Part shown: positions 11,018 through 60,158 of the stretch, in pieces
Numbering within the stretch: position 1 is the stretch's first letter
Layout of the letters: each line of letters opens with the position of its first letter
Assembly (NCBI GenBank): GCA_964599645.1
Contig: CAZRGQ010000005.1
Location: 1 to 61,265, forward strand
Direction: 5' to 3'
Source of the DNA: an uncultured Lentisphaerales bacterium
Lineage (GTDB): Bacteria > Verrucomicrobiota > Kiritimatiellia > RFP12 > JAAYLN01
Length of the DNA stretch: 61,265 bases
The notes under the pieces: generated by a model
The model's input: the letters and a program-made list of their open reading frames with translations, nothing else
Database searches by the model: none
What the model was told of the DNA's origin: nothing
Made by a program: the position numbers and the translations under genes

Positions 11018-12010
11018 TTAAGGTCTGGCGGCAGGTGGTGGTCCACACGACTCACGCACAATAAGCGCTTTGTCCAACAGCAGATGTTTGACCGGTGCCA
11101 ACGGCTGTTTCAAGCGCCGCCACAACAGCTCGGTCAACTGCCGGGCAATTTCGTCCGTCGGAGTGCCCAGCGTCGTCAGCGGCGGATTGGTGAGCGACCC
11201 GATCGAGACGCCATCAAAGCCGATCACTGAGAGCTCCTGCGGCACCCGCAGACCGAAGCAGCCCGCTACCGAAAGCGCCTGCATCGCCACGGTATCGTTA
11301 CGACAGAGCAGAGCCGTGGGACGTTGCGCAGGCGGCAACGACAGCAGTTCGCCGATGCCCTCGCATGTCTTTGCCAGATAGTTGATCTCCTTGGAGTCAG
11401 AAACCCAGAGCAGCGGTTCAACGTTTACATACCCGGCCAAGACCTGATTTACATTCGCTTCCTGCTCCTCCCGGTTCATGTTGATCATGCCGAGGCGCCG
11501 ATGCCCCAACTCCAACAGATAGATGAGGGCATTGCGTACCGCCCCCTTGCCATCACGACAGATGGAGTCGTGTTGCGGGTTACAATTCTCAAAAGTCACG
11601 ACAGGAATCTCTGCCGGCACCCCTGACAGATCTTCATGGCAGGTGATAATGCCATCGACACCGCGTGAAATAACACTTTGAAAGGCGGCGTCGACGTCAT
11701 CAAGAGAGTTCCAGAAGGCGGCCACACCGGCGTAACGCCGCTTTGTCAGGCGCGCCTGCAGCACGGTGAGCAACTCCGCATAGAGCAGCTCGTTGGGGTT
11801 GTGCAGCAAGAGACCGATGGTGTAGTGTTTGCGTGTGCGCAGAGCACGGGCGGTCAGGTTGGGTCGATAACCGAGCCGGTCGGCCATCTTCTTGACACGT
11901 TCTTCCGTAGTGCGGCTGATGCCGCCGGCTGTCGCCTTGTTGGAGAGGACGGTCGAAACCGTCGCTATACTGACTCCAAGTGCTTCGGCTATATCGCGCT
12001 GACTTACCAT
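11018..12010 (-). CDS. LacI family transcriptional regulator
   Basis: N-terminal HTH (VSQRDIAEALGVSIATVSTVL, GYRPN) and sugar-binding domain ending LIVRESCG. Confidence 0.95.
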   Translation of the reverse strand: MVSQRDIAEALGVSIATVSTVLSNKATAGGISRTTEERVKKMADRLGYRPNLTARALRTRKHYTIGLLLHNPNELLYAELLTVLQARLTKRRYAGVAAFWNSLDDVDAAFQSVISRGVDGIITCHEDLSGVPAEIPVVTFENCNPQHDSICRDGKGAVRNALIYLLELGHRRLGMINMNREEQEANVNQVLAGYVNVEPLLWVSDSKEINYLAKTCEGIGELLSLPPAQRPTALLCRNDTVAMQALSVAGCFGLRVPQELSVIGFDGVSIGSLTNPPLTTLGTPTDEIARQLTELLWRRLKQPLAPVKHLLLDKALIVRESCGPPPAARP

Positions 12011-12032
12011 AATTAGATCTCAACTTTCTGCA

Positions 12033-14834
12033 TCATTTAAACTGCAACAGAACATCTCGAATTTCTCCAGGGTTATTAACCTTTGCTTCATGCCAATGCC
12101 CAAACCCCTTGTGCTCATTTACGGCGGAAACCCACTCCTGCAAGTAGTGCTGCTTGACCCTGCTTGCTTCCGTCTCTTGCCCCTTAGTTTCGAGCACTAG
12201 CATATCTCCATTACTCAACCTGACTAGGAAATCAGGTCTGTATTTCTTAACAACACCCTCATGCAAGTAGAGTATTTCAAATCCCAAATGGTCATTTTTT
12301 ACCCATGATTCGACTCTATCACTGTTATCCAACATAAATGCATCTGCGACCTCCCAAGTGCTGTCATAAACACAGACATTAATATGTGACTTCTTTGTGC
12401 GCTGACAAGGCTTTCCCGTGTACCATGTACGCATGTCACCCGTTGAGCACACAGGCCTGTCCCGATCGAACACCAGCAGGTTACGCTCTGTGTTCGTTTT
12501 CTTTACTGCCTCAAAGACATAATTTACAACCCGTGACATGTTAAGGGTAATAATCAGACGGCGGCGCAAATCATCCTGATAAAACAACGGCGGCGCAATG
12601 TTTATGTGATCTGTCCTGATAAAATCTTCAACAATTCTAACTAACTGTGCCAATAAAACCTCACGGTTGCCTTCCCAAGCTTGCTTCATTTGATCAAAGA
12701 CATCACGTGCCGCCTCAAATACTATTCGTTGTTTCCTGAATTTACGCGCCAATTTTTCCAGCTCGATACGATCAATCTCCGAGACATTGGGTTTTCCATC
12801 TATAATTGGTGCCATTTCAGCAATTTGAACCGTTTGTGATGCATCCAGTTCCAAAGGCTTGACCCTTGTCCAATCCAACTCAAGCACTGGCTGAAAAACC
12901 TTGTCTATTCTGACAATATTCGGCCACTGTATTTCATGCTTTATCTTGGCTTTGTCCGGCTCTACTGCTGTTTTCGGCTCTGGCGGTGGCTGCGGCCCAC
13001 CCTCTCCGCTCTCATGAGGCAAGAATGTAAACGGCACTCCAAAAATGTTTACATATTCCGGTCTGAACAATCCACTCTCTTTATCTACCTCATAAGATGT
13101 GCGGCGTAAGCCACGCCCCACCACCTGCTCACACAGTAGTTGTGATGTAAAAGCTCTCAACCCCATTATATGTGTAACCGTTTTGGCATCCCATCCCTCC
13201 GAGAGCATCCCCACAGAGATTACGTTTCTTACTTGTTCACCAGCCTCTCCTGCTTTGCCAACTGTGTCAACTATATGGCGCAGCCTCTCTGCCTGCTCAC
13301 CTTTGGTTAATTGAACAGGTGCTTCCTCCTCATCATCAAAAACAGGAATATTGATCACATTGCTGCCATCTTCGACACCCTCAGCTTGCCCAAGCACCTT
13401 TGAATCAATATGCAACAAGTAGCTTTTGTCGCACAGTTCATCAATGTGGATACGCTTCGATTCAAAGGCATGACGCACCCTGGCGGCTGTCTCAGTACGG
13501 TTTGCCACCGTAATCATGACAGGCGGTGTCTTGAGTCCCGCATCGCTCCAAGCCTTAAAAGCCTCTAACCAATCCAACCCAAGCAGGTAATAGGCGTTTA
13601 GCACCAAGTCAGGCAATGGCTCTTCAGCTTTTGCCTGACGGTTAAGATCATCTTTAACCTCTGGGTCATTATAGATATGATATAAACGTGATTTATATGT
13701 CTTGGCATCGGGCACAGCATCATCACGTACAACAACACGCGGGGTCTTGACCAAGCCTGACTCAATCGCGTCATTCAAGCCAAAGTCGCTGACAATCCAT
13801 CCAAATAAAGCCTCCTCGCTGCTTTTTTTGCCTGATGGCGTAAACGGTGTGGCTGAAAAGTCATAACAAGTCAGAATACCACGGGTTCGATGCAAACGAT
13901 CCAGGCCGCCAATCCAAACCGTTGCTTCCTCGGCACTGTCCTTTAAATCGCGGGTTCGATAGTACTTGCCCTCAGCCTCCCAATTGACCCGCCATGCATG
14001 ATGCGCCTCATCGTTTATGACCAGCAAATTTTGTGCGTTTGCCATGTCGCCAAGAATTTCACGTGTATAAGCCTCATCACTCTTGACACCACGTTTGTCA
14101 ACACTGCGCTTTTTCTTAATCTGCTCTTCACTATCCCACGACAGCGCATGCCAATTGCGTATGATAATCTTGCTCTGATGCAACTTTTCAAACAGTGCCG
14201 ATGGCACAACGTTAAATGCAGCATAATAATTATCCTCAGCCGAAGGCTGTAAAACCCCCAAGCGCTTGCGCACAGTCAAACCCGGCGCAATAATCAAAAC
14301 ATTCTTGGAAAACCGGGCATCTTGAGGTGAGGCAACCTTGTTTAATACCTGCCAGGCAATTACCAGTGCCATAACAATCGTCTTGCCTGAGCCTGTTGCC
14401 ATTTTACAGCATTGGCGTACAAAATCGCCTCCATCGCCAGGAATCTCAATACCTGTTTTATCTGCACTACTTGCCTCACAAAGCCAAATCAAAGTTTCTA
14501 TGGCTTCAAGCTGACAGAAGAAGAAGCGCCTTTGGTCAAACTCCTCAGGGCTTTGCCAGTGCAACAGGAGGCGTTTTGTGATAGCGGTAACCCCGGGGTA
14601 CCCAGCCTCGCGCCACGCTTTAACCCGTGACCTGATCGCATTTACCAGAGGTATCTCCACAAAGTGCCCCGGGTCATCATGCGTCTTGGATGCCTGTGAA
14701 GCTACGATGTACCCGGCTGGTCTTCTGCCCTCTTCCAATTTGAAGGATTGAGTCTCGCGCACATACTTCCAGTATTGTAACGGCTCAACATAGGGTGAGT
14801 TGATTATCAAACGGTCTATTTTTGTATGTGCCAT
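12033..14834 (-). CDS. res: Type III restriction endonuclease Res subunit (SF2 helicase plus PD-(D/E)xK nuclease)
   Basis: KMATGSGKT Walker A, DEAH box, EQVVGRGLR, C-terminal PDFLVR...LETKG. Likely ATG at 14834 overlaps the upstream TGA (TGATG); the ORF track starts at 14852. Confidence 0.9.
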   Translation of the reverse strand: MAHTKIDRLIINSPYVEPLQYWKYVRETQSFKLEEGRRPAGYIVASQASKTHDDPGHFVEIPLVNAIRSRVKAWREAGYPGVTAITKRLLLHWQSPEEFDQRRFFFCQLEAIETLIWLCEASSADKTGIEIPGDGGDFVRQCCKMATGSGKTIVMALVIAWQVLNKVASPQDARFSKNVLIIAPGLTVRKRLGVLQPSAEDNYYAAFNVVPSALFEKLHQSKIIIRNWHALSWDSEEQIKKKRSVDKRGVKSDEAYTREILGDMANAQNLLVINDEAHHAWRVNWEAEGKYYRTRDLKDSAEEATVWIGGLDRLHRTRGILTCYDFSATPFTPSGKKSSEEALFGWIVSDFGLNDAIESGLVKTPRVVVRDDAVPDAKTYKSRLYHIYNDPEVKDDLNRQAKAEEPLPDLVLNAYYLLGLDWLEAFKAWSDAGLKTPPVMITVANRTETAARVRHAFESKRIHIDELCDKSYLLHIDSKVLGQAEGVEDGSNVINIPVFDDEEEAPVQLTKGEQAERLRHIVDTVGKAGEAGEQVRNVISVGMLSEGWDAKTVTHIMGLRAFTSQLLCEQVVGRGLRRTSYEVDKESGLFRPEYVNIFGVPFTFLPHESGEGGPQPPPEPKTAVEPDKAKIKHEIQWPNIVRIDKVFQPVLELDWTRVKPLELDASQTVQIAEMAPIIDGKPNVSEIDRIELEKLARKFRKQRIVFEAARDVFDQMKQAWEGNREVLLAQLVRIVEDFIRTDHINIAPPLFYQDDLRRRLIITLNMSRVVNYVFEAVKKTNTERNLLVFDRDRPVCSTGDMRTWYTGKPCQRTKKSHINVCVYDSTWEVADAFMLDNSDRVESWVKNDHLGFEILYLHEGVVKKYRPDFLVRLSNGDMLVLETKGQETEASRVKQHYLQEWVSAVNEHKGFGHWHEAKVNNPGEIRDVLLQFK

Positions 14835-15358
14835 CAATCCACCTTTTTCCATTCATAACAAACTGCCAGTTCATGTAGCATTTCAAAAGTGTCTTTATAA
14901 GTCACGTTGAATTGGCTGCATATATCAGGTATTGCAACACGCTTGTGTGATTGCGGTTGGGGCTGCTCATTGGTTACTACAGCCGCATCGTGCACCATGG
15001 CATAAGCTACCAGCCAGCCATCCGCATCAGTTGCAAATTTTGCTTTGGCATGGTCATAATACTGCGAATTGCGTTGTACCCACAACATAATCTGACTAAA
15101 AGCATTTATGACCTGCTCTGTTCCAGTATCCTCGAAAAAAGCTGGAGGCAAATCATTTTCAACCCACTGTACCAGATCGTCTGATTTACGGCCGCGTAAA
15201 AGCTCAGTCCGCACATGGTCTATGCTGCCGACAACCTCTGCTTCATGAAAATAAAGAAGGCTGTCCCAGAACCCCGGGCATATGGCAAAGGAGTAGTAGC
15301 GGTTTTTTGCCGTTATAAACACATCGGAGTCCAAGATATAAGATGCACTCTTGCTCAT
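14834..15358 (-). CDS. DUF4411 family PIN-like protein (putative RNase toxin)
   Basis: YILDSDVFI PIN-like first strand, RYYSF..CPGFW, ADGWLVAYA, VVTNE, IPDIC motifs; 174 aa. Confidence 0.8.
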   Translation of the reverse strand: MSKSASYILDSDVFITAKNRYYSFAICPGFWDSLLYFHEAEVVGSIDHVRTELLRGRKSDDLVQWVENDLPPAFFEDTGTEQVINAFSQIMLWVQRNSQYYDHAKAKFATDADGWLVAYAMVHDAAVVTNEQPQPQSHKRVAIPDICSQFNVTYKDTFEMLHELAVCYEWKKVD

Positions 15359-16506
15359 GGCAACACCACTCCCAGCCTGGATGCGTACTCTTGAAAAGCA
15401 CCACCATGCAAGCCTGTAAGATCATAGGCATCCTTGAATCCTACCCGTCCCTCTTTGGCTGCATAAAAAACCGCCAAAGCAAACTGCTCACCAAGCCGCA
15501 CATTCTGGCTGTTATAGAAGTTGCCTCCTTTGGAGCCAGCACGTTGTCTGCTTTCACGCTTTATGTAGTCTTGATAAAATTCAAAAAAGTACTCTTTGCT
15601 CACTAAAAGCAGATCCATGGCACGACGCCCTGCCACAATCGGACTGACCTTGAAGCGTCGGGCAAGATTCTCAAAAGGTGTCTCATCATATTTTATTTCA
15701 GACCAGCACTCCCTGAGTGTTTTTTCCGGCACCAGGAATTCGGCCGCCGCTTTGTTGCACCATGCTTCAATTTTTTGCTGAGGATACGCCCCAAGGTACG
15801 CATCCGAAAGCGCGCTTTCTCCCAACCAGACATGGGCCAGCTCGTGAGCCAAGGTGAACATTTGTGCCGATTTGCTGTCCGCCCCGTTGACAAATATCAG
15901 CGGTGCGTACTCATCGCAAAGCGCAAAACCGCGAAACTCATCAACATTGAGCACACGTTTTGTGTTGTTCCCCACAACCCCGTTTATGAAGGCACAAACC
16001 CCGATCTTTTCCATTGCAAGGCGCAAAGCACTGACAGCTTCCTGCCAGGTCCTTACACTTGCTGCCCACCCATCCTCAAAGCCGATTATCCGGCGCATCT
16101 CCTGTCCCACGCCCTGCGGAGAGTCTTTGACTGTGGCACTCCCCACAAACCCCAACGGTTCAGCCTCACAGGCTATCAACTCCTCACGCAGCCAGGCCTG
16201 CCGTCTCTGCATGGCATGAATTGTATCCAGCAGATTGGGGCTGGGAGAGCCTACCCACTGATTGTCCATGGTTCGCAAATCAGCCAGGTGCAACTGCTCA
16301 ACAGGGGGCTCAGGCAGGAAGAAATACCCCAGTGGCACGTATGTTGCCTTTGCATACTCTTCCAACTGCCTGAAAGTTGGCAGTGCCTCGCCCCGCTCCC
16401 AGGCTGCAAGCCGCCGGAAGCGTGTGCCGAAATCGCCAGCATCACGGTCAAGCCGCTCACGTGCCCAGCGAATCATTTCCGGTTTAACCTTAATACGCTG
16501 CACCAT
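15355..16506 (-). CDS. XRE-HTH plus ImmA/IrrE family zinc metallopeptidase
   Basis: N-terminal XRE HTH (LAAWERGEALPTFRQLEEYAK), FTLAHELAH HExxH motif, downstream EAWCNKAAAEFLVP. Confidence 0.9.
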   Translation of the reverse strand: MVQRIKVKPEMIRWARERLDRDAGDFGTRFRRLAAWERGEALPTFRQLEEYAKATYVPLGYFFLPEPPVEQLHLADLRTMDNQWVGSPSPNLLDTIHAMQRRQAWLREELIACEAEPLGFVGSATVKDSPQGVGQEMRRIIGFEDGWAASVRTWQEAVSALRLAMEKIGVCAFINGVVGNNTKRVLNVDEFRGFALCDEYAPLIFVNGADSKSAQMFTLAHELAHVWLGESALSDAYLGAYPQQKIEAWCNKAAAEFLVPEKTLRECWSEIKYDETPFENLARRFKVSPIVAGRRAMDLLLVSKEYFFEFYQDYIKRESRQRAGSKGGNFYNSQNVRLGEQFALAVFYAAKEGRVGFKDAYDLTGLHGGAFQEYASRLGVVLP

Positions 16507-16508
16507 GC

Positions 16509-19154
16509 CTACATCTCCAGTATCTTTAAACTCTCAATACCTCGGTCATCCACAATTTTGACCGCTACCCGTTTGTATTTGCCTGGTTCAAAGGGCAGGG
16601 ATATCGTGCCGCGATAAGCCTCAATCAGATCATCGTCTATCTCGGCACTCAGATTCTTTGCCAGACGTGACCACCCCTCTTTTTCCCCTGCCATCGGGAA
16701 AAACACCTGTCTGGGATACAAGCTGCGGCCATCGTAATCGGTGTCCAGCATCCAGACCGCAATCTGGCTCTCATCACCCGACTCTATTTCACCTGTTTTG
16801 GTGTTGTAGTAGTCAAAGCCATGTACCTCGACCTCCCATTTATCACGGTCAGCACCGCGGGTAATGCGGCGTAGCATAACATCCGGCTGGCCAATCAGCC
16901 AGAATGACTCATTGCTGGCACGCTTTTTCTTGAGATCATCGGTCAGTAGGTCGGCATTCATCTGTGCTTTCAGCAGTGTCACACCCGGCCAGTTAATTTC
17001 ATCAATATCTTTGGCAGCTTCCGGGTCAAACTGGAAAGCTGCAAAGACAATCAACCGCGGTTTGGGCACCAGCGTCTGCGCCTCCTCAATCGCCTGGGCA
17101 ACTTGACGCTGCTCCAAAGGCGCATGATCCGGCCCAAATGAGACCACCACCCGTTGCGCCTCAGCCGCAGCGCCCTCCCTGACCCTGTCATGCCCATCTT
17201 TGTTGGGCCTGCTCTCGCCATCAGCATGTAGCCAGCGGCAACCCGGCAAAGGCTCCAGACGCGCAAACTTGATATGCTGCCCGGCCTTGGCCCTGATGCC
17301 GGTACGCAGCAACTCATCCCGCCAGTCGCCTTGCCGCAGCGTTTCACCACTGCGGGCAATTGTAGATGCGAAGTGCCCAGTCTGCTCCTGATCATAGAGA
17401 TTGTCGCTGCTGCCACCATACTCCAGAATATTGTCCAGCGACTTCACTGCCGCTGCCGGCACCGCCTCTACCGTAAAAGGTCCGCTGACCCGCGTCTTTT
17501 TTTTGTCAACCAGTGGTTGGTCGTAAAGCACTTCCTGCGGTGCATGACGCGCAATCGCTGCATCAATTGCCGCTTGTGACATCCCCTCTTTTATATCGGG
17601 ATTGTTGGCAATTGACTTGAGTGTTACATGCGGCACCGTTTTATACTTGAAGCCGCTCCCCACTCCTTCATTCGGGTGCGCCAGTTCAAAGTAGTCATAT
17701 ACCCCGGTCATCAAACGCTGCTTTGCCAAGGTCAACGCCACCCGCGATGTGTCACAGGTAATCCAGCGCCTGCCCCACTGCTCAGCCACAAAGGCAGTCG
17801 TACCACTACCACAGGTCGGGTCAAAAACCAGATCACCAGGATCGGTTGTCATGAGAAGGCAGCGCTGTACAGCAAGATTGCCGGTTTGAACTACATATAT
17901 TTTTTGTGTGAATGTTCCTATTACAGTGTCATCCCACACGCTATTAATTGGCATAACAGGAAAATCAGTTTCATAGCGTTTGTATGCGAGAGTTTTACCT
18001 TGTGATATGATACGATTTGCATTTGCTAGAGTCCTCATACCGGCTTCATTAGTTGACCAATGTCGGCCTTGTGAAGGAAGAAAAAGTTGTCCATCAAATT
18101 CAAAATTAAAAGAACCGCTAGCTGTTTCGCCTTGTCCAGAAATATCCGATGCTCGAAACCTACGTCCTTTTGGCAATTCGACTTCGCCACGCATTTCTTC
18201 ACCTGATAACCTTCGACAATTTCCTGCCTCTAGTTCTAACCAAGAAAAAGTACCCAGTTCAGTTCTTTCTTTTTTTGCTACAAACAACTGACGGTATTTT
18301 ATTTTATTTTTATCTTTTGCGTACCATAATAGGTAATCAAAATTACTAGATAATAAGCTACCTGAAAAGCTAGCCGTTTTAATGAACGCAATTAGACTAA
18401 TAAAGTTTTTTGCCCCAAACACCTCATCCAGCAGCTCCCGTACATGGTGTACGTTTTCATCGCTGATCTGGACAAAGATGCTGCCGCTCTCGGTCAACAG
18501 CTCTCTTGCCAGCAGCAAACGGTCACGCAGGTAGGTCAGATAGGAGTGGATGCCCAGCTCCCAGGTGTCGCGGAAAGCCTTGATCTGCTCCGGCTCGGCA
18601 GTCAGGTCCTCATCACGCCCCTCTCGCACATCGCGCTTGTTGACAAAGGGCTGGAAGTTGGAGCCATACTTGATGCCATAAGGCGGATCCAGATAGACCA
18701 TCTGCACCTTGCCTGCCATCCCCTCTTTTTCCAGCAGGGAATTCATCACCAGCAGGCTGTCGCCTGCCACCATGCGGTTACTCCAGCCATGCGCGTGTTT
18801 GTAAAAGTCAATAGCCTGACGCAGCGGCTCATCACGCTCCACATCAAACAGCAGCATCTGCGCCGCGTCCTTGCTGCCATTGCGCTTTTTGACCGCCTCC
18901 ATAATGCTACGCGGGTCAATACGCTCATGCACATGTAAAGAGACAGTTGGCACCTCAAAAGAGGTGTGCTCACTCTTGCCCGCCCATTGCAACTGCGGAT
19001 CAAGGTGCGGGTCATAGGCATAACTCCTCGAAGCCCCGGCATCAGGGTCAGTATCAGGTGTTACCAATCCCACCGGAGGGTTATTGACCCGCTCTTTGTC
19101 CTTGTGCTCATACGACTCTATGGGACGCTTGGCACTCTCTCTTCTTCTAGCCAT
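16509..19154 (-). CDS. mod: Type III R-M adenine methyltransferase Mod subunit (beta class) with long C-terminal extension
   Basis: DPPY motif IV precedes FDPTCGSGTT motif I, with a variable TRD between them; 881 aa. Confidence 0.92.
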   Translation of the reverse strand: MARRRESAKRPIESYEHKDKERVNNPPVGLVTPDTDPDAGASRSYAYDPHLDPQLQWAGKSEHTSFEVPTVSLHVHERIDPRSIMEAVKKRNGSKDAAQMLLFDVERDEPLRQAIDFYKHAHGWSNRMVAGDSLLVMNSLLEKEGMAGKVQMVYLDPPYGIKYGSNFQPFVNKRDVREGRDEDLTAEPEQIKAFRDTWELGIHSYLTYLRDRLLLARELLTESGSIFVQISDENVHHVRELLDEVFGAKNFISLIAFIKTASFSGSLLSSNFDYLLWYAKDKNKIKYRQLFVAKKERTELGTFSWLELEAGNCRRLSGEEMRGEVELPKGRRFRASDISGQGETASGSFNFEFDGQLFLPSQGRHWSTNEAGMRTLANANRIISQGKTLAYKRYETDFPVMPINSVWDDTVIGTFTQKIYVVQTGNLAVQRCLLMTTDPGDLVFDPTCGSGTTAFVAEQWGRRWITCDTSRVALTLAKQRLMTGVYDYFELAHPNEGVGSGFKYKTVPHVTLKSIANNPDIKEGMSQAAIDAAIARHAPQEVLYDQPLVDKKKTRVSGPFTVEAVPAAAVKSLDNILEYGGSSDNLYDQEQTGHFASTIARSGETLRQGDWRDELLRTGIRAKAGQHIKFARLEPLPGCRWLHADGESRPNKDGHDRVREGAAAEAQRVVVSFGPDHAPLEQRQVAQAIEEAQTLVPKPRLIVFAAFQFDPEAAKDIDEINWPGVTLLKAQMNADLLTDDLKKKRASNESFWLIGQPDVMLRRITRGADRDKWEVEVHGFDYYNTKTGEIESGDESQIAVWMLDTDYDGRSLYPRQVFFPMAGEKEGWSRLAKNLSAEIDDDLIEAYRGTISLPFEPGKYKRVAVKIVDDRGIESLKILEM

Positions 19155-19251
19155 GATAACCTTTAAAATTAGTAAGCTGCTTCAAGCCCTGTCCCATACG
19201 CATTTTACATGTGGGTAACGCCAAAAAGTCTTGCACAAAACATCTTTAATG

Positions 19252-20049
19252 TCAACCCTGCTTGTAACTTTGCACCCATCTGCGTGCCAGCAGCCAGCCT
19301 GCCAGACAGCCGATCAGATGGGCTGAGTAGGCGATCTGCCCCCACCCTATCACGAGCTGCACCAGCGTAATCGCCATTACCAGCAAGGCCAAGGTGCGCG
19401 CCTGCAGCTTGAGCGGTATCACGAAGAAGAGCAGCACAAGCAGCTTGCGCCGCGGAGCCAGCGCCGCATAGGCGCCGATCAGACCGAAGACCGCCCCGGA
19501 GGCACCGACGCAGGTGCCGTAGGCTCCGATCGGTTGCTGCTCGGCCCAACGCTGTACCCACGGCCCCCAGAAACTGCCCGGCAGATGCTGCAGACCGAGC
19601 CAGATGGTCGGCTCCAGCCAGTTGAAGAGCATCCAGCCGAGACCTGCCACTACGGCGCTCACCAGATAGAGCTGCCAGAAGCGGCGTGTGCCCACCAGTG
19701 CCTCGACGGCCGAGCCGAAGAAGAGGAGTGTCACCATGTTGAGCGTCAGGTGCAACCAGGAGCCGTGGAGAAAGGCGTAGCTGAGCGGCTGCCAGAAGCA
19801 GCCGCTGCGCAACAGCGGCCAGTGGAGGCCGAAGATGTCGTAAATCAGTACGCCGCAGTTGAGCTCCTCGGAGTATTCCAGCCCGTGCAAGACGCTCAGT
19901 ACGATTTGAACCGCGAGGGCGGCAATGGCAATAGCTTTTACCGCCGGCGTGAACTGTAGCCAGGGTGAAAAGCGCCAGGTACGACGCCAGCCCGCAGGAG
20001 GCGATGGAGCAGACTCCTCCGGGGCATAAGTTATCTCCACCTCACTCAT
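19252..20049 (-). CDS. Rhomboid family intramembrane serine protease
   Basis: WQPLSYAFLHGSWLHLTLNM, GASG catalytic Ser, AHLIG catalytic His, multiple TM helices. ATG 20049 overlaps the GT2 stop. Confidence 0.92.
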   Translation of the reverse strand: MSEVEITYAPEESAPSPPAGWRRTWRFSPWLQFTPAVKAIAIAALAVQIVLSVLHGLEYSEELNCGVLIYDIFGLHWPLLRSGCFWQPLSYAFLHGSWLHLTLNMVTLLFFGSAVEALVGTRRFWQLYLVSAVVAGLGWMLFNWLEPTIWLGLQHLPGSFWGPWVQRWAEQQPIGAYGTCVGASGAVFGLIGAYAALAPRRKLLVLLFFVIPLKLQARTLALLVMAITLVQLVIGWGQIAYSAHLIGCLAGWLLARRWVQSYKQG

Positions 20050-43500: not shown

Positions 43501-44570
43501 ATGCCGCCAATGCCTACTACAACGGCCTCTGGGGCGGGAGCGGCATTATCACGCGCCTCCCCTGGCTCTATCCCAAGCGAGCCTACGTAGCCTATTCAGC
43601 CCTGACGGCCATCCTCGACCAGGTCAAGCTGCGTGGCCAGTTGCCGACCGGCTCCACCACCACTTATGCCCTCGCCTTTGAGAGGGCCGACCAACAGCAC
43701 GCCACCGCCCTCTGGTGTGCCCGCGGCGCGGCCGACTTCAATGTAACCTTCGGCGGCAACGCCAAGGTGACGCTCTACGATATCTACGGACGCTCCACTA
43801 CGCAAAGGGGCAGCAGCATCGTAGTCAAGGGTGGCACAGCCGTCAGCTATCTGGTGAGCGACCTGCCGGTGGCAGAGGTGGCCATCACCGGGCGCTCCTT
43901 CCCGCGTGATGAGGCGCGTGCGGCAGCGGCCCAAGTGGTAGAGCCGCTCGCGACGATGCAGGGAGTTGTCATGGCAGCCGATCCCGACTTCACTCATACC
44001 CACACCCGCTATCTGCCGCTGCTCAAGCCCTCTGACTTTACGCTGCAGGAGGTCAAAGACAGCGAAAAGGGCGACTGCCTCGAAGTGACGCTCGATCTGA
44101 GCAAAAACAGTGACACCAGCAAGTATATCACCGAGTTTACCACCCTCACCTTTGCCGAACCCAAAGTGGTGGAGGGCGAGCCGGCCGCGATCGGCCTCTG
44201 GGTGAAGGGCAACTCCAACTGGGGGCAGATCCGCTTTACAATCGAGGATGCCCAGGGCGAAATCTTCAAATCGATCAGCCCTACCGGTTATGGTTGCGAT
44301 GTGCTCGACTGGCCCGGCAATCTGGCGGTCAACTTCGACGGCTGGTGTCATGTGGCCCACCCGTTGCGTACGAGTCGCTTCTTCAACGACCACAGTCCGG
44401 GCGGTGTCGATGAGCAGTGGATTTCGAGTGGCGGCGACAAGGTAATCGACTTCCCGATCAAGATCAAGGCGATTACCGTCGGCATGAATCGCACCAAACT
44501 CGACCTGACCGGCTTCGTGCCCAGTGAGCCGTCGCTTCGGCTGAAAGACCTGGGCGCACTGCAGGAGTAG
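40551..44570 (+). CDS. Large secreted multidomain protein, putative clan GH-A-like glycoside hydrolase with accessory domains
   Basis: Signal peptide; Ig-like segment (QPGLYHL); barrel-like region with VWHES, DYYDYLG, NACFEY, PKRAYVAY; C-terminal IGLWVKGNSNW binding-module-like segment. Confidence 0.55.
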   Translation: MQGMREIRVALLFVMSAALTGSGADYYRENFRRYSAQVPGVVRDNGATVANDPIWVDRGEIRFKPERSGYLFDEFQAGALPAGVTSYDLCFTYRLMQQSRGAFDLVLRDVAESELRLTFAADEVVVQRPEGALRGALPPEVQQEGFRFVTVKVADGAIAVHSDRHRVYQEIVAGPVKLAALKGFNFYASTNVSFGVTDIVLRDPAPLTTWPVEQHFAAFESLKDEAGFAGARSVSEVTLTGNGDGVKFRVGDSEPELILSWSDGRSQSYPIKIGEVKITRKVPGLAGEALHDGTIQVGRLATQYVKPLLRRYHSNSKYVPALVDIIRDDALLPVASEHPFDIDLQRLPDGSLDLYFDGSFVLNQKQGAASFEKATLKFKQPTSVVVKPGLKNVNTARYVPLDLAANPRAKAFIDAKLSLPPGLQTIGAVPLNIVAPAASADVGICRQGMGDWALEVDEYTARSPLDGFSSAIHYRLPPAHYTKAWLVAALDPDSAKDPVLVARIGHYTSAGSGGNLLADSRIDLPRGTALPDNVKEIGSVTHKGATLPLYLIELPLDASKVLDHASQRAYVDFEVFGKPWVNFEQVDRTVKPDPHSTSAFQLFGITLEKAPVVMEMVQAVPGNVFTLEEQATTAVALTALHPVSLRLAWRAYDSNGAEVFNDASNVALQQAGASQKITIPLKATQPGLYHLEIALQDETGRELLRHAARFAIVLPERRLAGRHNSPYATWWFARAHGGTDDLDIIGPLFRKAGIRRMSWKTIPDADPKMVEYGLTSSGQFRIPLKAADLDATGTAFKPQPLEKALAAVNDYFKRCPEADTIMVWHESAPSYGIPEELLGLPIPEANERQKLNGPFINAVGKVIRDNFPGKKIQIGNSTSSIGAATLPLRHGANPDYYDYLGIEIPSQVVMPERLIEVGLQGMRITQDIATRLAGRKVALNACFEYTYRCERDMGEQQQAEWYMRDALISLANEMQLIGPGVFVDAANAYYNGLWGGSGIITRLPWLYPKRAYVAYSALTAILDQVKLRGQLPTGSTTTYALAFERADQQHATALWCARGAADFNVTFGGNAKVTLYDIYGRSTTQRGSSIVVKGGTAVSYLVSDLPVAEVAITGRSFPRDEARAAAAQVVEPLATMQGVVMAADPDFTHTHTRYLPLLKPSDFTLQEVKDSEKGDCLEVTLDLSKNSDTSKYITEFTTLTFAEPKVVEGEPAAIGLWVKGNSNWGQIRFTIEDAQGEIFKSISPTGYGCDVLDWPGNLAVNFDGWCHVAHPLRTSRFFNDHSPGGVDEQWISSGGDKVIDFPIKIKAITVGMNRTKLDLTGFVPSEPSLRLKDLGALQE

Positions 44571-44756
44571 CCCTCAGATAAAAGCATAATTGCGACACAC
44601 TCTACCTCATGCCTGACATCTTTTTACTGAACTAACAATTTTCGTATTGAATTGTTTTTTCAAAACGGTTATAAGCTGAGTTCACTGTTTGCAGGCAACC
44701 GAGGGTTATCCTTGTGTTGTTACCTGTGGGGTTTGGCAGTCTTGTCAGGAGTAGTG

Positions 44757-45452
44757 ATGAAGTCGAAAACGAAACGCTGTTACCGTGCAATAAATCTGAC
44801 ACTCTTTGCACTATTGGCCGGGTTGGGCTTGCTGTTTACGTCCGGCTGTGAAAGCAGTAACCACGATGACGAAGAGAGTGCAGAGACTCCGATAGAGGAG
44901 AGCGATGATTCCACAAAAGAGAGCGCCAAGCAGCAGAGTAGCAACAATCCAAGCGAGGCGCTCTTTCCCGATGGCTTGCATCCCAACAGCGCTGGCGCAG
45001 GCAAGATTGCCAAAGCATTTGCCGCTGCTTTGGGTGGCGCATCCGATGAGACGCTGCCGATAGTCTGTCTTGGTGACAGTATCACTGTAGGTGGTTATCC
45101 GGCGAAGTTGGCCACAATAACCGGTCGCGAGGTCATCAATGCCGGTAAAGGAGGTGAAAAGAGCGCTGGTGGTGCCGGAAGGGTCGCCACTGTTCTAACA
45201 GAACATAACCCCGCCTATCTCTGTATTCTCTATGGTATCAACGACTTGATTTCCCACAAATCGACGAGTGAAGTGATCGCCAACCTCAACTCGATTGTGG
45301 CTACGGCAAAAGCAACAGGGGTAGTACCGATTGTAGGCACACTCACACCGGTCTTCGGGCATTATGAACATCTCCAGCCAGAGGTCAACAAGCTTAACAG
45401 CAGCATTCGCGGCATGGGGGTCAAAGTGGCCAATATCGCCGGTTCTTTTTAG
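44757..45452 (+). CDS. Lipoprotein SGNH/GDSL hydrolase with circularly permuted motif order
   Basis: Shine-Dalgarno plus ATG 44757; lipobox-like FTSGC; DGLHPN (44970-87) precedes GDSIT (45072-86), NAGKGG and GIND (45234-45). Confidence 0.85.
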   Translation: MKSKTKRCYRAINLTLFALLAGLGLLFTSGCESSNHDDEESAETPIEESDDSTKESAKQQSSNNPSEALFPDGLHPNSAGAGKIAKAFAAALGGASDETLPIVCLGDSITVGGYPAKLATITGREVINAGKGGEKSAGGAGRVATVLTEHNPAYLCILYGINDLISHKSTSEVIANLNSIVATAKATGVVPIVGTLTPVFGHYEHLQPEVNKLNSSIRGMGVKVANIAGSF

Positions 45453-45523
45453 TGAGTCAGCGCTACCCGGCTTCCCGGAAAAATCATGGGGGTGCGATCC
45501 ACAATAGTGGATGGCATCAAGAA

Positions 45524-45552
45524 TTGACAGAGAGCCCAAAAGTTGCTATGCT
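45524..45552 (+). promoter_or_regulatory. Near-consensus sigma70 promoter
   Basis: TTGACA (45524-29), 17 bp, TATGCT (45547-52) with an extended -10 TG. Confidence 0.6.
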
Positions 45553-45650
45553 ATCTTCAACTGAAGAGCCCTCTACTTTTTGATGGCGTTTGGTTACGCA
45601 CGTTGAATGGTAGCGGGCTTGGTTAAAACCGCTGATGAGAGGAGCCATTC

Positions 45651-47264
45651 ATGCACAAATCCCATCATAATTCTTTGCAGGAGCCAGCCCTCCATGAGAT
45701 GCTGCATCTCTATAAAGAGAAGAGTTATTGGCAGCGCCTCGGGCTGATGTTTGCCGGTCTCGGCAGACCGCATGAGAGCCGGGAGTACAAAATCGCCCGC
45801 ACCGAGCTGCAGCGTCAGGCAGCTCCCCTTCTGGCCATCACCCTGCCGCTGCTCACGATCCTGCTGCTGGCGCTCCTGGCCAAAACGCACGAAACTGAGG
45901 TGCCGGTCATCCAGACCGAGATCAAGGATCCGGTCGTGGTCGAAAAGCTGAAAGAGCTCTTAAAACGTGACCCACCACCTGATCCACTGCAACTGAAGCA
46001 AGTCGACTTCACCCCTGCTAACGCCATGAACCAGCCGGTGATTACCCCTGATGAGACGGCACCACTGCCGCAAAAGCCGATCGTCTCTGTCTTGCCGATA
46101 CCGAGTCCCATTGTCATTCCCGGCATCTTCAGCGATCCTCGCAGCCCCGGCAAACGTACCGAGCTGCTTGGTGATCATGGTGGCAATCAAGCCACCGAGA
46201 CAGCCGTAATACGTGCCCTGCGCTGGCTCAAGACGCAACAGAACGCCGACGGCTCCTGGGGCCCTAACAAGACTGCCATGACCTCGCTGGTACTCCTCTC
46301 CTATCTGGCGCATGGCGAAAAACCCGACTCCAAAGAGTTTGGCGACAACGTATTGCGTGGCATCGAGTATCTGCTCAAGTCGCAGCCGGCCAGTGGCCAG
46401 TGGCCCGGCAACTATGAGCACTATATCGCCACCTACGCCCTCTCCGAAGCCTACGGCATGACCCAGAACCCCACCCTTCGGGTGGCTGTCGACCGTGCTG
46501 TCAAACTGATCATCGAGGGCCAGCATCCGACCGGCGGCTGGGACTACGCCCTCAAGCAGAATGATCGTGACGACACCTCTGTCATGGGTTGGGCTGCGCA
46601 GGCGCTCAAGGCTGCCATCATGGCCGACTTCTACAGTGACCCCGAAGCGCTGCTGCGTGCCAGCAAGCTCTCTGTCAAAGGCTTCCAGCAGAATGCCGAT
46701 GCCAGCGGTGGTTTCGGTTACGTCAGCAAAGGACGCGGCGGACTAACCTCAGTCGGTGTGCTCGGCATGCAGTTTCACAATGCCGGCAACTACCCGGAGG
46801 TGCGCAAGTCGTTGGAGTTGATGGACTCCTGGATTCCCGCCTGGAACGGCTCAACGCCGCAGCGGCGTCTTGCCAGAGATGAGACGCCTGCCAAAGTCGC
46901 CGGGCTCCCGCCCGGTGCCAACACGCAATACTACTACTACTATGCCACCCAGGCGATGTTCCAAAGCGGTGGCAAACGCTGGGAGCGGTGGAACGGGAGA
47001 ATGTGGCCCGACTACGTCAAGGCGCAGTTCGTCGAAGAGCAGGCAATCGCCGATCCTCAGGGAGTCATGCAGGATATCGGCTGGTGGGAGAATGGCGACA
47101 ACTCCGGCTCAAACCAGCGCCCGGTAATGGACACCTGCCTCGCCGCCCTGCAACTGATGGTCTACTATCGCTACCTGCCGACCTTCAAGGCCGTCGATAT
47201 CCCTGGCGACGTCATTGCCAGTGTAGAGGATAGTGGCGATATCAAGGTCGACAGCAGCCTCTAA
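45651..47264 (+). CDS. Membrane-anchored prenyltransferase/squalene-oxidase-repeat (alpha/alpha barrel) protein
   Basis: N-terminal TM, Pro-rich linker, ALRWLKTQQNADGSW, YLLKSQ, QHPTGGWDY, DTSVMGW, QQNADASGGFGY, YYYYYATQAMF. Confidence 0.8.
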   Translation: MHKSHHNSLQEPALHEMLHLYKEKSYWQRLGLMFAGLGRPHESREYKIARTELQRQAAPLLAITLPLLTILLLALLAKTHETEVPVIQTEIKDPVVVEKLKELLKRDPPPDPLQLKQVDFTPANAMNQPVITPDETAPLPQKPIVSVLPIPSPIVIPGIFSDPRSPGKRTELLGDHGGNQATETAVIRALRWLKTQQNADGSWGPNKTAMTSLVLLSYLAHGEKPDSKEFGDNVLRGIEYLLKSQPASGQWPGNYEHYIATYALSEAYGMTQNPTLRVAVDRAVKLIIEGQHPTGGWDYALKQNDRDDTSVMGWAAQALKAAIMADFYSDPEALLRASKLSVKGFQQNADASGGFGYVSKGRGGLTSVGVLGMQFHNAGNYPEVRKSLELMDSWIPAWNGSTPQRRLARDETPAKVAGLPPGANTQYYYYYATQAMFQSGGKRWERWNGRMWPDYVKAQFVEEQAIADPQGVMQDIGWWENGDNSGSNQRPVMDTCLAALQLMVYYRYLPTFKAVDIPGDVIASVEDSGDIKVDSSL

Positions 47265-53994: not shown

Positions 53995-54261
53995 ATGACC
54001 CAATGCGCTATCGATGAAGCCCGCGTCTATCCGGCACCCTTCCATTTCCGAATTATTGTCCATGCCGACAGTCAGGCCCACACCAGTCTGGCCACCACGC
54101 TTGCCGACTACCGCGTAGTTGAGCCGCTCGCCTCCGGCAACTCATCCGGCAGCGGTCGCTATCTCTCACTCAATGTAACTGTCCACCTCGAAAGTCGCGA
54201 CGAGCATCAACGCCTCCACACCGCCATCCGCAACACTGCCGGTGTACGTCTCCTGCTCTGA
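53995..54261 (+). CDS. DUF493 (YbeD-like) family protein
   Basis: YPAPFHFRII...SSGSGRYLSLNVTV pattern; 88 aa. Confidence 0.75.
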   Translation: MTQCAIDEARVYPAPFHFRIIVHADSQAHTSLATTLADYRVVEPLASGNSSGSGRYLSLNVTVHLESRDEHQRLHTAIRNTAGVRLLL

Positions 54262-57132: not shown

Positions 57133-58731
57133 TTATTCACCGCTCCTGATTAACCGCTGCTGCAACCGCACCCCCGCCGGCATCTCTCCCGCCATCTCAT
57201 CCAACCTATGCGCCAAACGCCCTGCCGCCACTTCATCAGCAGCATAGAACTGCACCGTCTCAAAGGCACACACGATATTATGCGGTATCGTCAAGCTCCC
57301 CACCCTGATCAAACTCTCCGGCAAAAGGGTGCCATCTCCATACCACTCATCGTATACCGCCACATAGGCCACTCCTTTTCGTTGCAACAACTCGCTGATA
57401 TACTCACGCGTCAGCCCCCCCTGACGCTTCACCCGAGCCACCTCTGTCGTTCCCAACCCCCACAAATCAACCAGCTCCAGCCCGGTACGGTAGCACATCG
57501 CTCCCAGATCATTGATGGCTACCCCGCCACTACCCTCCAGGCCCTTGAAAATCTCCGCCATCTGCCACTGCTGCTGGTAGATATTGGCCGCGCCGCGTGG
57601 CACCCTGCTTGTGGCCCATACACCACGCAGACACAACGGACCCACCAGCAACCCCACCAGGGCAATGCGGCCACTCCCCGCCCACCATGCCTCTTCACTG
57701 CTCCATTCCGACTGCGGCCACACTCCCCGCCAGCGCCCATTCGCCAACCATGCCCACCCCAACAGCGCCAAGCCTGCTCCCATCAGATAGGCCTCATAAC
57801 GATAAAAGCGCCCGCACTCGGCCAGCGTCACATGCGCCACCACTGCCACCACAACCACCAGATTCATCTGCCGCAAGGCCAATGGGATACGCCGCAACCC
57901 CGCCGTCAGCAACAACAGCAGCACCACTATATGAAGGTGTACGTTGCTCAGCCCCACATCTACGTAGAACCTGAAAAGCTGCCAGAAATAGCCCTTCACC
58001 CCGCCACCCGGCATCCGACCCTTCAGCATCAGCGAATTCGGCAGGAAAAAGCCGCCATGCGCCACTGCATAGACCCCATGCCACACCACCGGCAACGACG
58101 CCGTCAGCAGCAGCCCCAACGCCAACCACCAGCGGCGACGCCAGGCGAAAACTGCTGCCAGCGGCCCCACCACAAAGAGCGCTTCATAACGCGCCCCCAC
58201 ACTCAACCCCGCCACCAGCACCAGCCACCACTCACAGCCCATTCCCTCCAGAACGCGCAAGGCCAGCACCAGCAGCAATAGTGTCAACCAGAGATGCAAC
58301 GTATGCTCCATCCCGGTCGAGGCGATCACGGCCATCGGCACCAACAGGAAGAGACCCAAGCCGAGTGCCACCCGCCACCACCAACTTACCCCGCGCCGCC
58401 GTGCCTCGCCATCCACTACCCAGAGCGCCAGAACAGCAAAGAGGTAGTTCAACAGCCCGGGCAGCCATTCAGCCTTACCAAGCAGGCGTATCCCTCCCGC
58501 CAGCAACACTGTCCAGAGCGGCGACGACGAACAGAAGGTATAACTCTCCGGCCGCAACCCCCAGACCCCATGCTGTGCCAGATTGCGTGCCAACGCCAGG
58601 TGAATATAGGCATCATCCAGCGTATAGACCCCATGTCCCTCCGACAACCTGATCCCCAGCAACAACTGCACCAGCATCACTGCCAGCGCCACACCGCCCA
58701 CCAAAAGAGCACTACTCCAAAATCGTCTCAT
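57133..58731 (-). CDS. Polytopic membrane protein, GT-C fold-like glycosyltransferase/glycan-modifying protein
   Basis: YTLDDAYIH after TM1, SSSPLWT, GMEH, ARYE; many TM helices plus a soluble C-terminus. Confidence 0.6.
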   Translation of the reverse strand: MRRFWSSALLVGGVALAVMLVQLLLGIRLSEGHGVYTLDDAYIHLALARNLAQHGVWGLRPESYTFCSSSPLWTVLLAGGIRLLGKAEWLPGLLNYLFAVLALWVVDGEARRRGVSWWWRVALGLGLFLLVPMAVIASTGMEHTLHLWLTLLLLVLALRVLEGMGCEWWLVLVAGLSVGARYEALFVVGPLAAVFAWRRRWWLALGLLLTASLPVVWHGVYAVAHGGFFLPNSLMLKGRMPGGGVKGYFWQLFRFYVDVGLSNVHLHIVVLLLLLTAGLRRIPLALRQMNLVVVVAVVAHVTLAECGRFYRYEAYLMGAGLALLGWAWLANGRWRGVWPQSEWSSEEAWWAGSGRIALVGLLVGPLCLRGVWATSRVPRGAANIYQQQWQMAEIFKGLEGSGGVAINDLGAMCYRTGLELVDLWGLGTTEVARVKRQGGLTREYISELLQRKGVAYVAVYDEWYGDGTLLPESLIRVGSLTIPHNIVCAFETVQFYAADEVAAGRLAHRLDEMAGEMPAGVRLQQRLIRSGE

Positions 58732-60158
58732 CTCGCCTCGTCTCCTGGAGGGCGGCGCGCTGTCGCCGCCGCAGCTTTTACCCTCCTTTTATCCACGTCA
58801 TCGCAACCACTCCCTTGGTTACGATAATCCGCCTCCCGCTGCACCAGCCACTCCGCCATCCTCTTGTACACCACCCCGCCATCAAACAGCTCCGCTACCA
58901 TACGCCGCGCCCCCGCCCCATGCTCTTCGATCAACTCCGGCTTATTTAAATAGCGCTCCACTGCCGCCACGAAGCTGTCACAACATCCCGCCTTATACCC
59001 TGCTCCCGCTCCATAGCGTGCCAGCAACTCCTCGCACTCCCCCTTTAAGCCACTGATGATCGCCAACCCCGCCGCCCCGTAATCGATCACCTTGTTCGGC
59101 ACCACCACCCCCGACTCACTGAACATCGGCACCAACCCCACATCACACTGCGCCAGCAACTGCCACATCTCCTCCGCCCCGACAAAACCATGATAATTGA
59201 TTGGCACCCCCTCCGCCGCCGCCCTCTCCACCAAGCCACGCTCCGGCCCATCCCCCGCCACCACCACTCTCACCCGCCTCCCCGCTGCCGCCAGGCGCCT
59301 TACCCCCTCCACCACCGTCCCCAAATCATACCCCGCCCCCAAATTCCCCACATAACACAACTTCACCCCCGCCGCCCCCTCCGTACCATCACGGCATGCC
59401 GTGATGCCACCGCACCCCGCATCCCCCCTGGAGGGCGGCAGGCTCTTGCCGCCGCAGCCTGGTAGGGCGTGCTCGCCGAGCGCGCCGCCCACCGCCTCCT
59501 TACCATCACGGCATGCCGTGATGCCGCCGCTTTGCAGCCCCACCGCCAGCGGAAACCACCCCATCCGCCCCCGCGCCCCGCGCCGCCGCGCCAGCTCCAG
59601 GTAGCGCTCCGCCACCGCCGCCACCCCATCCGCCCCCCGATAGGCCCGCCCCGCACACCACCACCACGGCCACAACACCAGCCGCCCCAGCCAGCCCCAG
59701 CCCCTGCGCCACAACCGGTAAAAATTCTCCGGCCATAAATCCTGAATATCCACCACCACCGGCACGCCCCACCTGCGCCGCAATGCCGCCGCCGCACCAT
59801 ACAGCTCCAAAGGCGGCATGCTCACCACCAACCGCTCCGGCAGCGCCACCTCCCCCGCCGCCACCGCTGCCACCGCCGCCCGTCGCCAGCGCCGTGCATA
59901 GCTCCAGTGACTCACCAACCGCCCCGGCCCGATATTGCGCCGGTAAGGCCGCGTCGCCACCAGCCGTATCTCAATCCCCTCGCATTCATAGCAGGCCGCC
60001 ACCTCGCGCCGCCGCTTCGTCACGTGGTGGAAGTCGCTCGACCACACCACCACCTCATGCCCCGCCGCCACCAGCGCCCGCGCCAGTTGCCAGTAGCGCA
60101 TCGGACGCCCCCGCTCACCCGGCAGCGTATCAAAAGGTGTATTGATCCAAATCTTCAC
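58728..60158 (-). CDS. Family 4 glycosyltransferase carrying an in-frame REP-derived insertion and a REP-derived C-terminal tail
   Basis: VVVDIQDLWPE, YVGNLG, VVAGDGPE, PNKVIDY, LAII; duplicated GGITACRDG peptide flanks 39 extra residues. Confidence 0.88.
   Translation of the reverse strand: MKIWINTPFDTLPGERGRPMRYWQLARALVAAGHEVVVWSSDFHHVTKRRREVAACYECEGIEIRLVATRPYRRNIGPGRLVSHWSYARRWRRAAVAAVAAGEVALPERLVVSMPPLELYGAAAALRRRWGVPVVVDIQDLWPENFYRLWRRGWGWLGRLVLWPWWWCAGRAYRGADGVAAVAERYLELARRRGARGRMGWFPLAVGLQSGGITACRDGKEAVGGALGEHALPGCGGKSLPPSRGDAGCGGITACRDGTEGAAGVKLCYVGNLGAGYDLGTVVEGVRRLAAAGRRVRVVVAGDGPERGLVERAAAEGVPINYHGFVGAEEMWQLLAQCDVGLVPMFSESGVVVPNKVIDYGAAGLAIISGLKGECEELLARYGAGAGYKAGCCDSFVAAVERYLNKPELIEEHGAGARRMVAELFDGGVVYKRMAEWLVQREADYRNQGSGCDDVDKRRVKAAAATARRPPGDEAR

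Follow-up and report, generated by a model that had tools for sequence, protein, structure and literature searches.

The DNA analyzed here, a stretch of 61,265 nucleotides (nt) hereafter called the window, comprises positions 1 to 61,265 of contig CAZRGQ010000005.1 of an uncultured Lentisphaerales bacterium (GenBank assembly GCA_964599645.1), and it carries on its reverse strand a restriction-modification (R-M) operon of Type III in which two additional genes separate mod from res (table 1). The first of these encodes a large protein that joins a helix-turn-helix (HTH) of the Xre type to a zinc-peptidase of the M78 family, and the second encodes a PIN-fold protein of the DUF4411 family; by sequence comparison, the pair is a homologue of VapBC52, a system of the toxin-antitoxin (TA) type from M. 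tuberculosis. We consider it probable that the pair constitutes an autonomous VapBC52-type TA or abortive-infection cassette, lodged in the mod-res junction of an acquired Type III operon. The assignment of the four genes is sustained by matches in Pfam, PADLOC and NCBIfam, in agreement with a preliminary description that had been drawn from the DNA letters and their reading frames.

Table 1. Coordinates of the genes and other features discussed in the text (window numbering, unless a locus or accession is given; aa, amino acids)
Feature	Position	Strand	Remarks
mod, Type III beta-class DNA methyltransferase, 881 aa	16509..19154	-	PF01555 and PADLOC MTase_III
vapB52-like antitoxin gene, Xre-type HTH, M78 Zn-peptidase and helical C-terminal domain, 383 aa	15355..16506	-	
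vapC52-like toxin gene, DUF4411 PIN-fold RNase (predicted), 174 aa	14834..15358	-	
res, Type III restriction subunit, BPTD_3080 family, 933 aa	12033..14834	-	
Intergenic stretch 5' of mod	19155..19251	-	sole non-coding room for the operon promoter (presumed)
E. coli prophage pair	L183:5865-7513 = CP099174.1 827466-829114		strain RHB23-SO-C02

Direct reading of the sequence bears out the tight junctions already reported in the preliminary description. The stop of mod and the start of the peptidase gene are separated by 2 nt (TAG, GC, ATG), the peptidase and PIN genes overlap by 4 nt (ATGA), and the PIN/res junction reads GGATTGATGG, in which the A of the TGA stop doubles as the first base of the res ATG (TGATG). 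A mechanical list of open reading frames (ORFs) puts the start of res 18 nt further upstream, at 14852; we prefer the TGATG start because the public gene calls, which adopt the 933-aa form, and the N-terminus of the res-family consensus, MARTTIDRLIINSPY, corresponding to MAHTKIDRLIINSPY of the window Res, agree on it. GGAG-like or AAGGTGG motifs lie 4-10 nt ahead of each internal start, and we infer co-transcription and translational coupling of the four genes. An antisense ORF of 280 aa (15775..16617, plus strand) was discarded, as it lies wholly within well-supported genes.

The AT-richness of the block relative to its flanks, previously noted by eye, is confirmed by base composition: the four genes have a GC content of 0.45-0.53 and a third-position GC content (GC3) of 0.45-0.56, whereas the flanking genes (rhomboid, GT2, LacI, DUF4838 and Der) range from 0.58 to 0.65 and from 0.68 to 0.79, respectively. 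The LacI gene starts just 22 nt past the stop of res. No tRNA gene was found within the window and no integrase among the genes called to the left and right of the island; no empty insertion site was found either, every contig with an identical LacI neighbour carrying the island. A scan of positions 11800-19500 for promoters and terminators gave matches at chance level, including some inside the block, and upstream of mod we found neither a motif shared with the upstream regions of related operons nor a conserved operator or palindrome.

Uniqueness of the gene order to this genome, which the preliminary description had named as evidence against its own proposal, is contradicted by the recurrence of the order in several genomes. 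Contigs of a Rhodoferax metagenome-assembled genome (MAG) show the same order with the same 2-nt gap and the same 4-nt and 1-nt overlaps in a different neighbourhood, their four proteins being 73/79/77/76% identical to those of the window (for Mod, 73% over its full length). The order is also present in a Hydrogenedentes MAG (L011; L numbers designate the surveyed loci), in L173 and in the metagenome contig L090, with truncated examples in L015, L097 and L124. Because both order and junction geometry recur in unrelated genomes, the four-gene layout is not a matter of chance; and because all four genes share a foreign composition and a homologous block exists in Rhodoferax, the best-supported reading of the sequences is that the Type III operon was acquired horizontally as a four-gene block.

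The R-M genes themselves have the features of their class. Mod matches PF01555 (2.1e-30, Pfam) and the PADLOC model MTase_III (1.6e-168), and in its translation motif IV (VYLDPPYG) comes ahead of the FxGxG motif I (DPTCGSGTT), the order of the beta class. Res scores 1132 bits against NCBIfam NF046055, the BPTD_3080 family of restriction endonucleases (cut-off 800), and contains a ResIII domain (Pfam), with a superfamily 2 helicase and a C-terminal PD-(D/E)xK nuclease. Its GSGKT, DEAH and D868...E882-x-K884 motifs are invariant in a family alignment that spans bacterial relatives and an archaeal one, each sharing about 75% identity with the window protein, and such relatives are named 'type III restriction endonuclease subunit R' in public sources; moreover, mod lies upstream of res and the operon has no separate S subunit. 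Since its motifs are kept, the enzyme looks intact; as a Type III system it would be expected to cleave in an ATP-dependent manner, with a need for Mod and unmethylated sites. Proteins of the BPTD_3080 family are unusually conserved, those of many bacterial phyla and of a Methanothrix MAG (loci L089-L168) being about 75% identical to the window Res, with a mean column identity of 90% in their alignment.

Identity of the inserted pair

In VapBC52 (Rv2515c/Rv2514c; PDB 9VZY and 9VZZ; NAR 2026, PMC13273310), the toxin VapC52, an RNase with a PIN domain, cleaves tRNAs, those of phage D29 included, within either the anticodon loop or the variable loop, and each VapC52 dimer is bound by one VapB52 (PMC13273310). 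Single-stranded DNA (ssDNA) switches on the M78 domain of VapB52, which then removes its own N-terminal domain (NTD), a part required for complex formation; a 'cysteine switch', residue C229 in VapB52, auto-inhibits both this protein and CapP (PMC13273310).

The peptidase protein of the window matches Peptidase_M78 of Pfam at 4e-20, with the motif HELAH, and the profile of its family aligns with VapB52 (chain 9VZY_A) at E = 6.1e-27, residues 6-350 corresponding to residues 2-360 of the chain and the C-terminal 30 residues or so remaining outside the alignment. Residues H221, E222, H225 and E247 are invariant in 28 out of 28 sequences, and three of them, H221, H225 and E247, align with the Zn ligands H216, H220 and E245 of VapB52. 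Within the tripeptide D76-L77-R78, equally invariant in the 28 sequences, L77-R78 align with the conserved FR motif in the linker between the NTD and the middle domain of VapB52, the Arg being kept and the Phe replaced by Leu. Matches in PADLOC comprise capP (2.2e-13) and 16 models of RmrA, the best at 8.8e-13 over residues 33-320, for which there is no curated cut-off. The AlphaFold2 (AF2) model of the protein matches the folds of IrrE, PprI-ssDNA, PrpR and CapP (7T5T, 3DTI and 8SLN included), and its N-terminus those of Xre HTH domains, including the controller protein C.Csp231I.

The protein encoded downstream belongs to DUF4411 (PF14367; 160.5 bits, cut-off 23.5, E = 3.7e-47), a family that overall comprises 2767 clusters at 50% identity. 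The DUF4411-family profile matches VapC52 (9VZY_D) at E = 1.9e-6; in the HMMER alignment residues D10, E52, D113 and E131, which are invariant in 28 relatives, align with the catalytic D6, E48, D99 and E117 of VapC52, and a fold search matched the AF2 model with VapC toxins. The toxin has no match among the families of PADLOC v2, RmrT included, and scans with Pfam, PADLOC and NCBIfam detected an ATPase domain in neither of the inserted proteins.

The window pair thus resembles VapBC52 in having a large antitoxin gene (HTH plus M78/IrrE-type Zn-peptidase) followed by a DUF4411 PIN toxin gene, with an antitoxin homologous along its length and with the toxin tetrad and the Zn ligands retained. 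It differs from VapBC52 in its distant sequences, in having S/T in place of C229 and LR in place of FR, in a toxin that is about 10 residues longer between E52 and D113, and in being nested between mod and res, an R-M context of which PMC13273310 makes no mention.

Genomic contexts of the pair and of the mod-res junction

Our survey took in 80 genome loci in which the closest DUF4411 relatives (54-69% identity) are encoded, with their neighbours labelled by phmmer using the window Mod and Res plus a set of Type I HsdM/S/R proteins as queries; as these queries have limited sensitivity, the R-M fraction is to be read as a minimum, and an Eco57I-type methylase is present in L027, for instance. 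The peptidase gene lies ahead of the toxin gene in 79 of the 80 loci. At least 47 of the pairs are embedded in R-M loci, 44 of them of Type I, typically as hsdS-pair-hsdR, and three of Type III. Type I genes stand on both sides of the pair (hsdM-hsdS-pair-hsdR) in 28 loci and on one side in 16, of which 12 are ended by the contig edge; 21 loci extend for at least 3 kb to either side of the pair without any R-M gene being detected, and the other 12 are too short to judge. Wherever the R gene comes next (35 loci), the toxin stop usually overlaps its start (28/35), and in 33/35 loci the two are no more than 5 nt apart.

Intact pairs without R-M genes are found beside housekeeping genes, and the pair of L024 adjoins a fragmented hsdR. 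More distant relatives (30-43% identity) occur solo on plasmids, for instance a Pseudoalteromonas plasmid, the plasmid copies adjoining HipBA modules. A distant pair of ImmA/IrrE and DUF4411 proteins is present in a lambdoid prophage of E. coli, immediately following a cI-like repressor and ahead of kil/gam/bet (table 1); of 5426 complete E. coli genomes, 33 contain it with an identity of at least 99%, and both its proteins have PHROG families, with no PADLOC model for the toxin. In lambda, the cI-adjacent position is occupied by rexAB. In a neighbour-joining tree of the concatenated peptidase and PIN proteins, pairs from Type I, Type III and solo contexts are intermingled, and the window pair lies apart from the other Type III cases, a placement that is only indicative as the tree has no bootstrap.

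Some of the seemingly solo copies carry traces of R-M genes at their borders. In L020 (8803-8853) a 17-aa remnant of the hsdS C-terminus abuts the antitoxin gene, in L045 (10534-10629) a 35-aa remnant of the hsdR N-terminus lies just 3' of the toxin gene, and similar hsdS/hsdR remnants are seen in L031 (12930-13007) and L004 (2669-2938). Because such remnants abut them, at least some solo copies are, as far as their sequences tell, descendants of Type I-embedded pairs, and the remnants suggest that cassettes are exchanged through recombination where hsdS and hsdR have their conserved ends. A chimeric ORF of 108 aa lies directly 3' of the toxin gene in L001 (8507-8833; contig Ga0496409_0000041): over residues 7-92 it shares 88% identity with the N-terminus of the hsdR located 2 kb onward, its tail resembles the hsdS C-terminus (...TGKIDVRAEVG), and it stands between two cargo modules, the pair and DUF488-DUF488-DuOB, so that it looks like a recombination footprint between them.

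Other defence-type cargo often shares the slot with the pair, as in the Type I loci L042, L070, L087, L069 and L067 and in L031, where only the hsdR remnant is present; this co-cargo comprises an AAA_13 ATPase, UvrD-type helicases, an AAA_21 ATPase, ApeA and Schlafen/AlbA_2. A putative third component, an ORF of 415-436 aa directly following the toxin gene in L037, L047, L081 and L086, was rejected, since it has no Pfam match and, among the four proteins, only those of L081 and L086 resemble each other. Upstream of the antitoxin gene, the 21 solo loci have no common motif beyond a palindrome, GTGTCATGAC(C)GACAC, situated some 55-70 nt 5' of the antitoxin start in L051, L059 and L064. We regard it as a candidate operator of this subgroup alone, which consists of two Arenicellales MAGs and one gammaproteobacterial MAG with near-identical upstream sequence.

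The same junction was then viewed from the side of res, in 80 metagenome loci of its family (L089-L168), of which 66 show mod. In 41 of these 66 loci mod overlaps or abuts res, mostly by -1 or -4 nt, in two a short spacer separates them, and in the remaining 23 at least 300 nt intervene. The contig ends before mod in 14 loci, half of which (7/14) show another gene, on the same strand, directly upstream of res; in one of the 14, L121, a VapC-type PIN gene is found just upstream of res. By Pfam, the inserts include OLD/AAA_15-AAA_21 ATPases (one with DUF4276), MNT-HepT, HEPN and Bro-N, as well as DUF3800, DUF1828 and DUF488 with ASCH. The VapBC52-like pair is present in just three of the 80 loci (L090, L097 and L124), and 77 are without it. 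Since loci without cargo show the same overlap, the overlapping junctions are the native geometry of mod and res, which the cargo preserves, and the slot is generic. The preliminary description had located its novelty in the embedding of the pair within the operon; this claim is not supported, as the closest relatives are mostly R-M-embedded, the mod-res junction is a general slot, and embedding as such has been described before.

Comparison with known systems

PrrC, a tRNA anticodon nuclease that sits between hsdS and hsdR, is the classical case of an embedded gene. It is likewise named in the study of 'guilt-by-embedding', which reports defence genes embedded in Hma, BREX, DISARM and Type I R-M loci (bioRxiv 10.1101/2024.01.29.577857). 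PrrC and the window pair have in common the slot between modification and restriction genes and an effector predicted, in our case, to be a tRNA-cleaving RNase; PrrC is, however, regulated by an ABC-ATPase and restrained by the R-M complex itself, whereas the window pair brings its own antitoxin. A nuclease of the PrrC/RloC type was accordingly rejected as an identity for the inserted genes, neither protein having an ABC-ATPase N-domain and the position alone being analogous. The pair has the marks of embedded cargo, namely nesting in the same orientation, recurrence in unrelated genomes and non-embedded copies, and like the cassettes of the embedding study it lies between the modification or specificity gene and the restriction gene; that study covers the four kinds of systems just listed and not Type III (bioRxiv 10.1101/2024.01.29.577857). 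The portion of the supplementary tables of Payne et al. that was available contains no DUF4411, M78 or ImmA entries.

TA systems of three components, HTH, DUF955 and PIN, have been predicted earlier (Makarova 2009, PMC2701414; Matelska 2017, PMC5499597), and several PIN genes are coupled to subunits of Type I R-M systems (Matelska 2017, PMC5499597). The predicted pair in which DUF4411.1 lies downstream of an HTH-DUF955 fusion corresponds to the arrangement in the window, but these studies report neither a Type III case nor a DUF4411 subfamily that is mostly nested upstream of R. In the literature consulted, which includes the supplements of the embedding study in part, we found no report of a VapBC52-like pair in R-M operons or of embedding in Type III systems.

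Similar peptidases are known from other defence and stress systems. RosmerTA (RmrT/RmrA) has been shown to act against phages and becomes toxic once its antitoxin is removed (bioRxiv 10.1101/2022.05.11.491447); its antitoxin also combines HTH and Zn-peptidase, and PADLOC models of RmrA match the window peptidase. The difference lies in the toxin, which in the window has no match to RmrT, a protein of unknown function, and is predicted to be a PIN RNase. Beyond RosmerTA and VapBC52, we found nothing in the literature on phage defence by M78 antitoxins. CapP/CapH of CBASS and IrrE/DdrO of Deinococcus share with the window protein a peptidase of the M78/IrrE type and, as predicted for the latter, activation by DNA damage or ssDNA, but CapP and IrrE cleave a separate repressor and thereby induce genes, whereas the window protease is fused to its HTH and is predicted to cut itself and free a toxin; it also lacks the cysteine switch of CapP.

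The locus is a well-explained composite of known parts, another case of defence genes nested in restriction operons. It places in a natural setting a TA type of which the mechanism became clear only in 2026, and it shows that restriction operons are the main home of the pair's closest relatives, which sit just upstream of the R gene there. It also widens the picture of embedded defence genes from Type I, BREX and DISARM to a very widespread and highly conserved Type III family, that of BPTD_3080, in which the mod-res junction behaves as an exchangeable cargo slot.

Mode of action, alternative readings and other observations

By analogy with VapBC52, the HTH-M78 protein would bind and block the dimer of the DUF4411 PIN protein. 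Its Zn-peptidase would be activated by ssDNA arising from phage replication or DNA damage and would then sever its own N-terminal domain at the linker, probably at the invariant D76-L77-R78, whereupon the complex would dissociate and the freed PIN RNase would cleave tRNAs, halting the growth of both the infected cell and its phage. The mechanism envisaged in the preliminary description, in which an IrrE/CapP-like HTH-peptidase responding to DNA damage or ssDNA frees a PIN RNase, has meanwhile been shown for the homologous VapBC52 (PMC13273310), and it is from this homologue that we infer, for the window pair, that the PIN protein is toxic, that ssDNA acts as the trigger, that tRNAs are the targets and that the pair serves in defence of the host. 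Restriction would form a first layer of protection and the cassette an independent second one. Neither the pair nor the R-M enzyme appears to need the other, because intact pairs exist without R-M genes, R-M loci exist without the pair, and contexts are interspersed on the tree. The position of the cassette is probably due to the permissive, recombination-prone nature of the slot just upstream of the R gene, which would offer co-expression and co-transfer to its cargo.

Several points weigh against the reading of the pair as an autonomous cassette of the VapBC52 type. Confidence in the AF2 models is only moderate (pLDDT 74 and 68), the toxin resembles VapC52 only distantly (profile E ~1e-6), and the FR motif proposed for the cleavage of VapB52 is LR in the window protein. 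Moreover, C229 of the cysteine switch corresponds to S234, a position that holds T in 22 and S in six of the 28 sequences, none of which has a Cys at peptidase positions 226-246; given this absence, the control of peptidase activation may differ from that of VapB52. Even for VapBC52, a native role in defence is not firmly established, because the shielding of M. smegmatis from D29 was shown with over-expressed VapC52, and co-expression of VapB52 with the toxin gave no phage protection (PMC13273310). Finally, a functional link invisible to genomics could lie behind the strong preference that this subfamily shows for the position directly upstream of R.

Such a link, in which the cassette would be wired to the R-M enzyme as part of an integrated two-layer system, is attractive from the positional preference and has no computed support, and we regard it as unlikely. 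The peptidase could be activated by Res-cut DNA ends, or by ssDNA, after processing by host exonucleases; alternatively, in the manner of PrrC, the toxin could be released when an anti-restriction protein of the phage disables Mod/Res. The abundance of R-M-embedded pairs (at least 47/80), nearly all directly upstream of R in both Type I and Type III operons and with the PIN stop overlapping the R start, would fit this proposal, as would the activation of the homologous VapB52 by ssDNA (PMC13273310), the same hsdS-hsdR position of PrrC and the absence of the cysteine switch in this subfamily, which makes another form of control possible. The overlap, however, is the default geometry of mod and res even without cargo, and many unrelated cassettes occupy the same slot; furthermore, the pair has its own antitoxin and sensor, is found intact without any R-M gene nearby, persists beside the decayed hsdR of L024 and shows interspersed contexts on the tree. 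We see no sign that the pair responds to R-M inhibition or adjusts Res levels, as the preliminary description had suggested, and intact pairs without R-M as well as the 77 out of 80 res-family loci without the pair speak against it. It is quite doubtful, too, that the R-M-associated subfamily, devoid of the cysteine switch and nearly always fused in translation to the R start, has evolved to relay restriction, HsdR/Res-made ends or ssDNA licensing the self-cleavage of the peptidase and leading to tRNA cleavage and abortive infection, a relay for which the trigger may be failed phage clearance or loss of methylation. If it were true that an ssDNA-sensing antitoxin reads the products of restriction, this would amount to concrete signalling between two layers of defence.

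The pair might instead be a selfish addiction module, stabilizing itself or the R-M island, or acting by post-segregational killing, with little or no role against phages. This has a low probability in our estimate, although the pair is of a bona fide TA type (Rv2514c-Rv2515c), is distributed patchily across phyla at 55-70% identity, as in horizontal gene transfer, occurs on plasmids beside HipBA modules, and has R-M scars around its 'solo' copies that attest to frequent rearrangement. The usual neighbours in the same slots are nevertheless recognized defence genes, the distant relative in the lambdoid prophage takes the cI-adjacent slot that in lambda belongs to rexAB, and RosmerTA, with the same antitoxin architecture, defends against phage. 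Addiction and defence are not mutually exclusive roles, and a purely selfish addiction is inseparable from defence by sequence alone. Much less credible is the notion that the HTH works like a C protein, regulating res or the whole operon so as to delay or tune Res after transfer, as the C proteins of Type II systems do. The N-terminal HTH does match C.Csp231I (profile E = 0.093, residues 29-73; fold matches with probability 0.98-0.99), to which the NTD of VapB52 has also been likened by the authors of the VapBC52 study (PMC13273310). The peptidase gene directly precedes the toxin and R genes, to which it is coupled, much as C genes lie upstream of R genes (PMC2175313). Yet the likeness is generic to Xre domains, P22 c2 and DdrO scoring as well; there is no room for an operator such as a C-box between mod and res, and searches upstream of mod and of the peptidase gene turned up no conserved palindrome or motif; nearly all surveyed loci of the same R-M family (77 of 80) lack the pair; and a 383-aa protein with an active-looking peptidase and a dedicated toxin partner is not a small stand-alone HTH. 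A controller role is thus very unlikely, and the autonomous cassette remains the reading that we favour.

Elsewhere in the window, a second dip in GC content at 44000-46000 (0.53, against ~0.61 around it) may mark another acquired segment. The stretch 54000-61265 has a strongly negative GC skew, reaching -0.44 at 59-60 kb, together with a positive AT skew of up to +0.27; within it, the ORF at 58728..60158 on the minus strand, otherwise unremarkable, has a translation that by eye resembles a glycosyltransferase.

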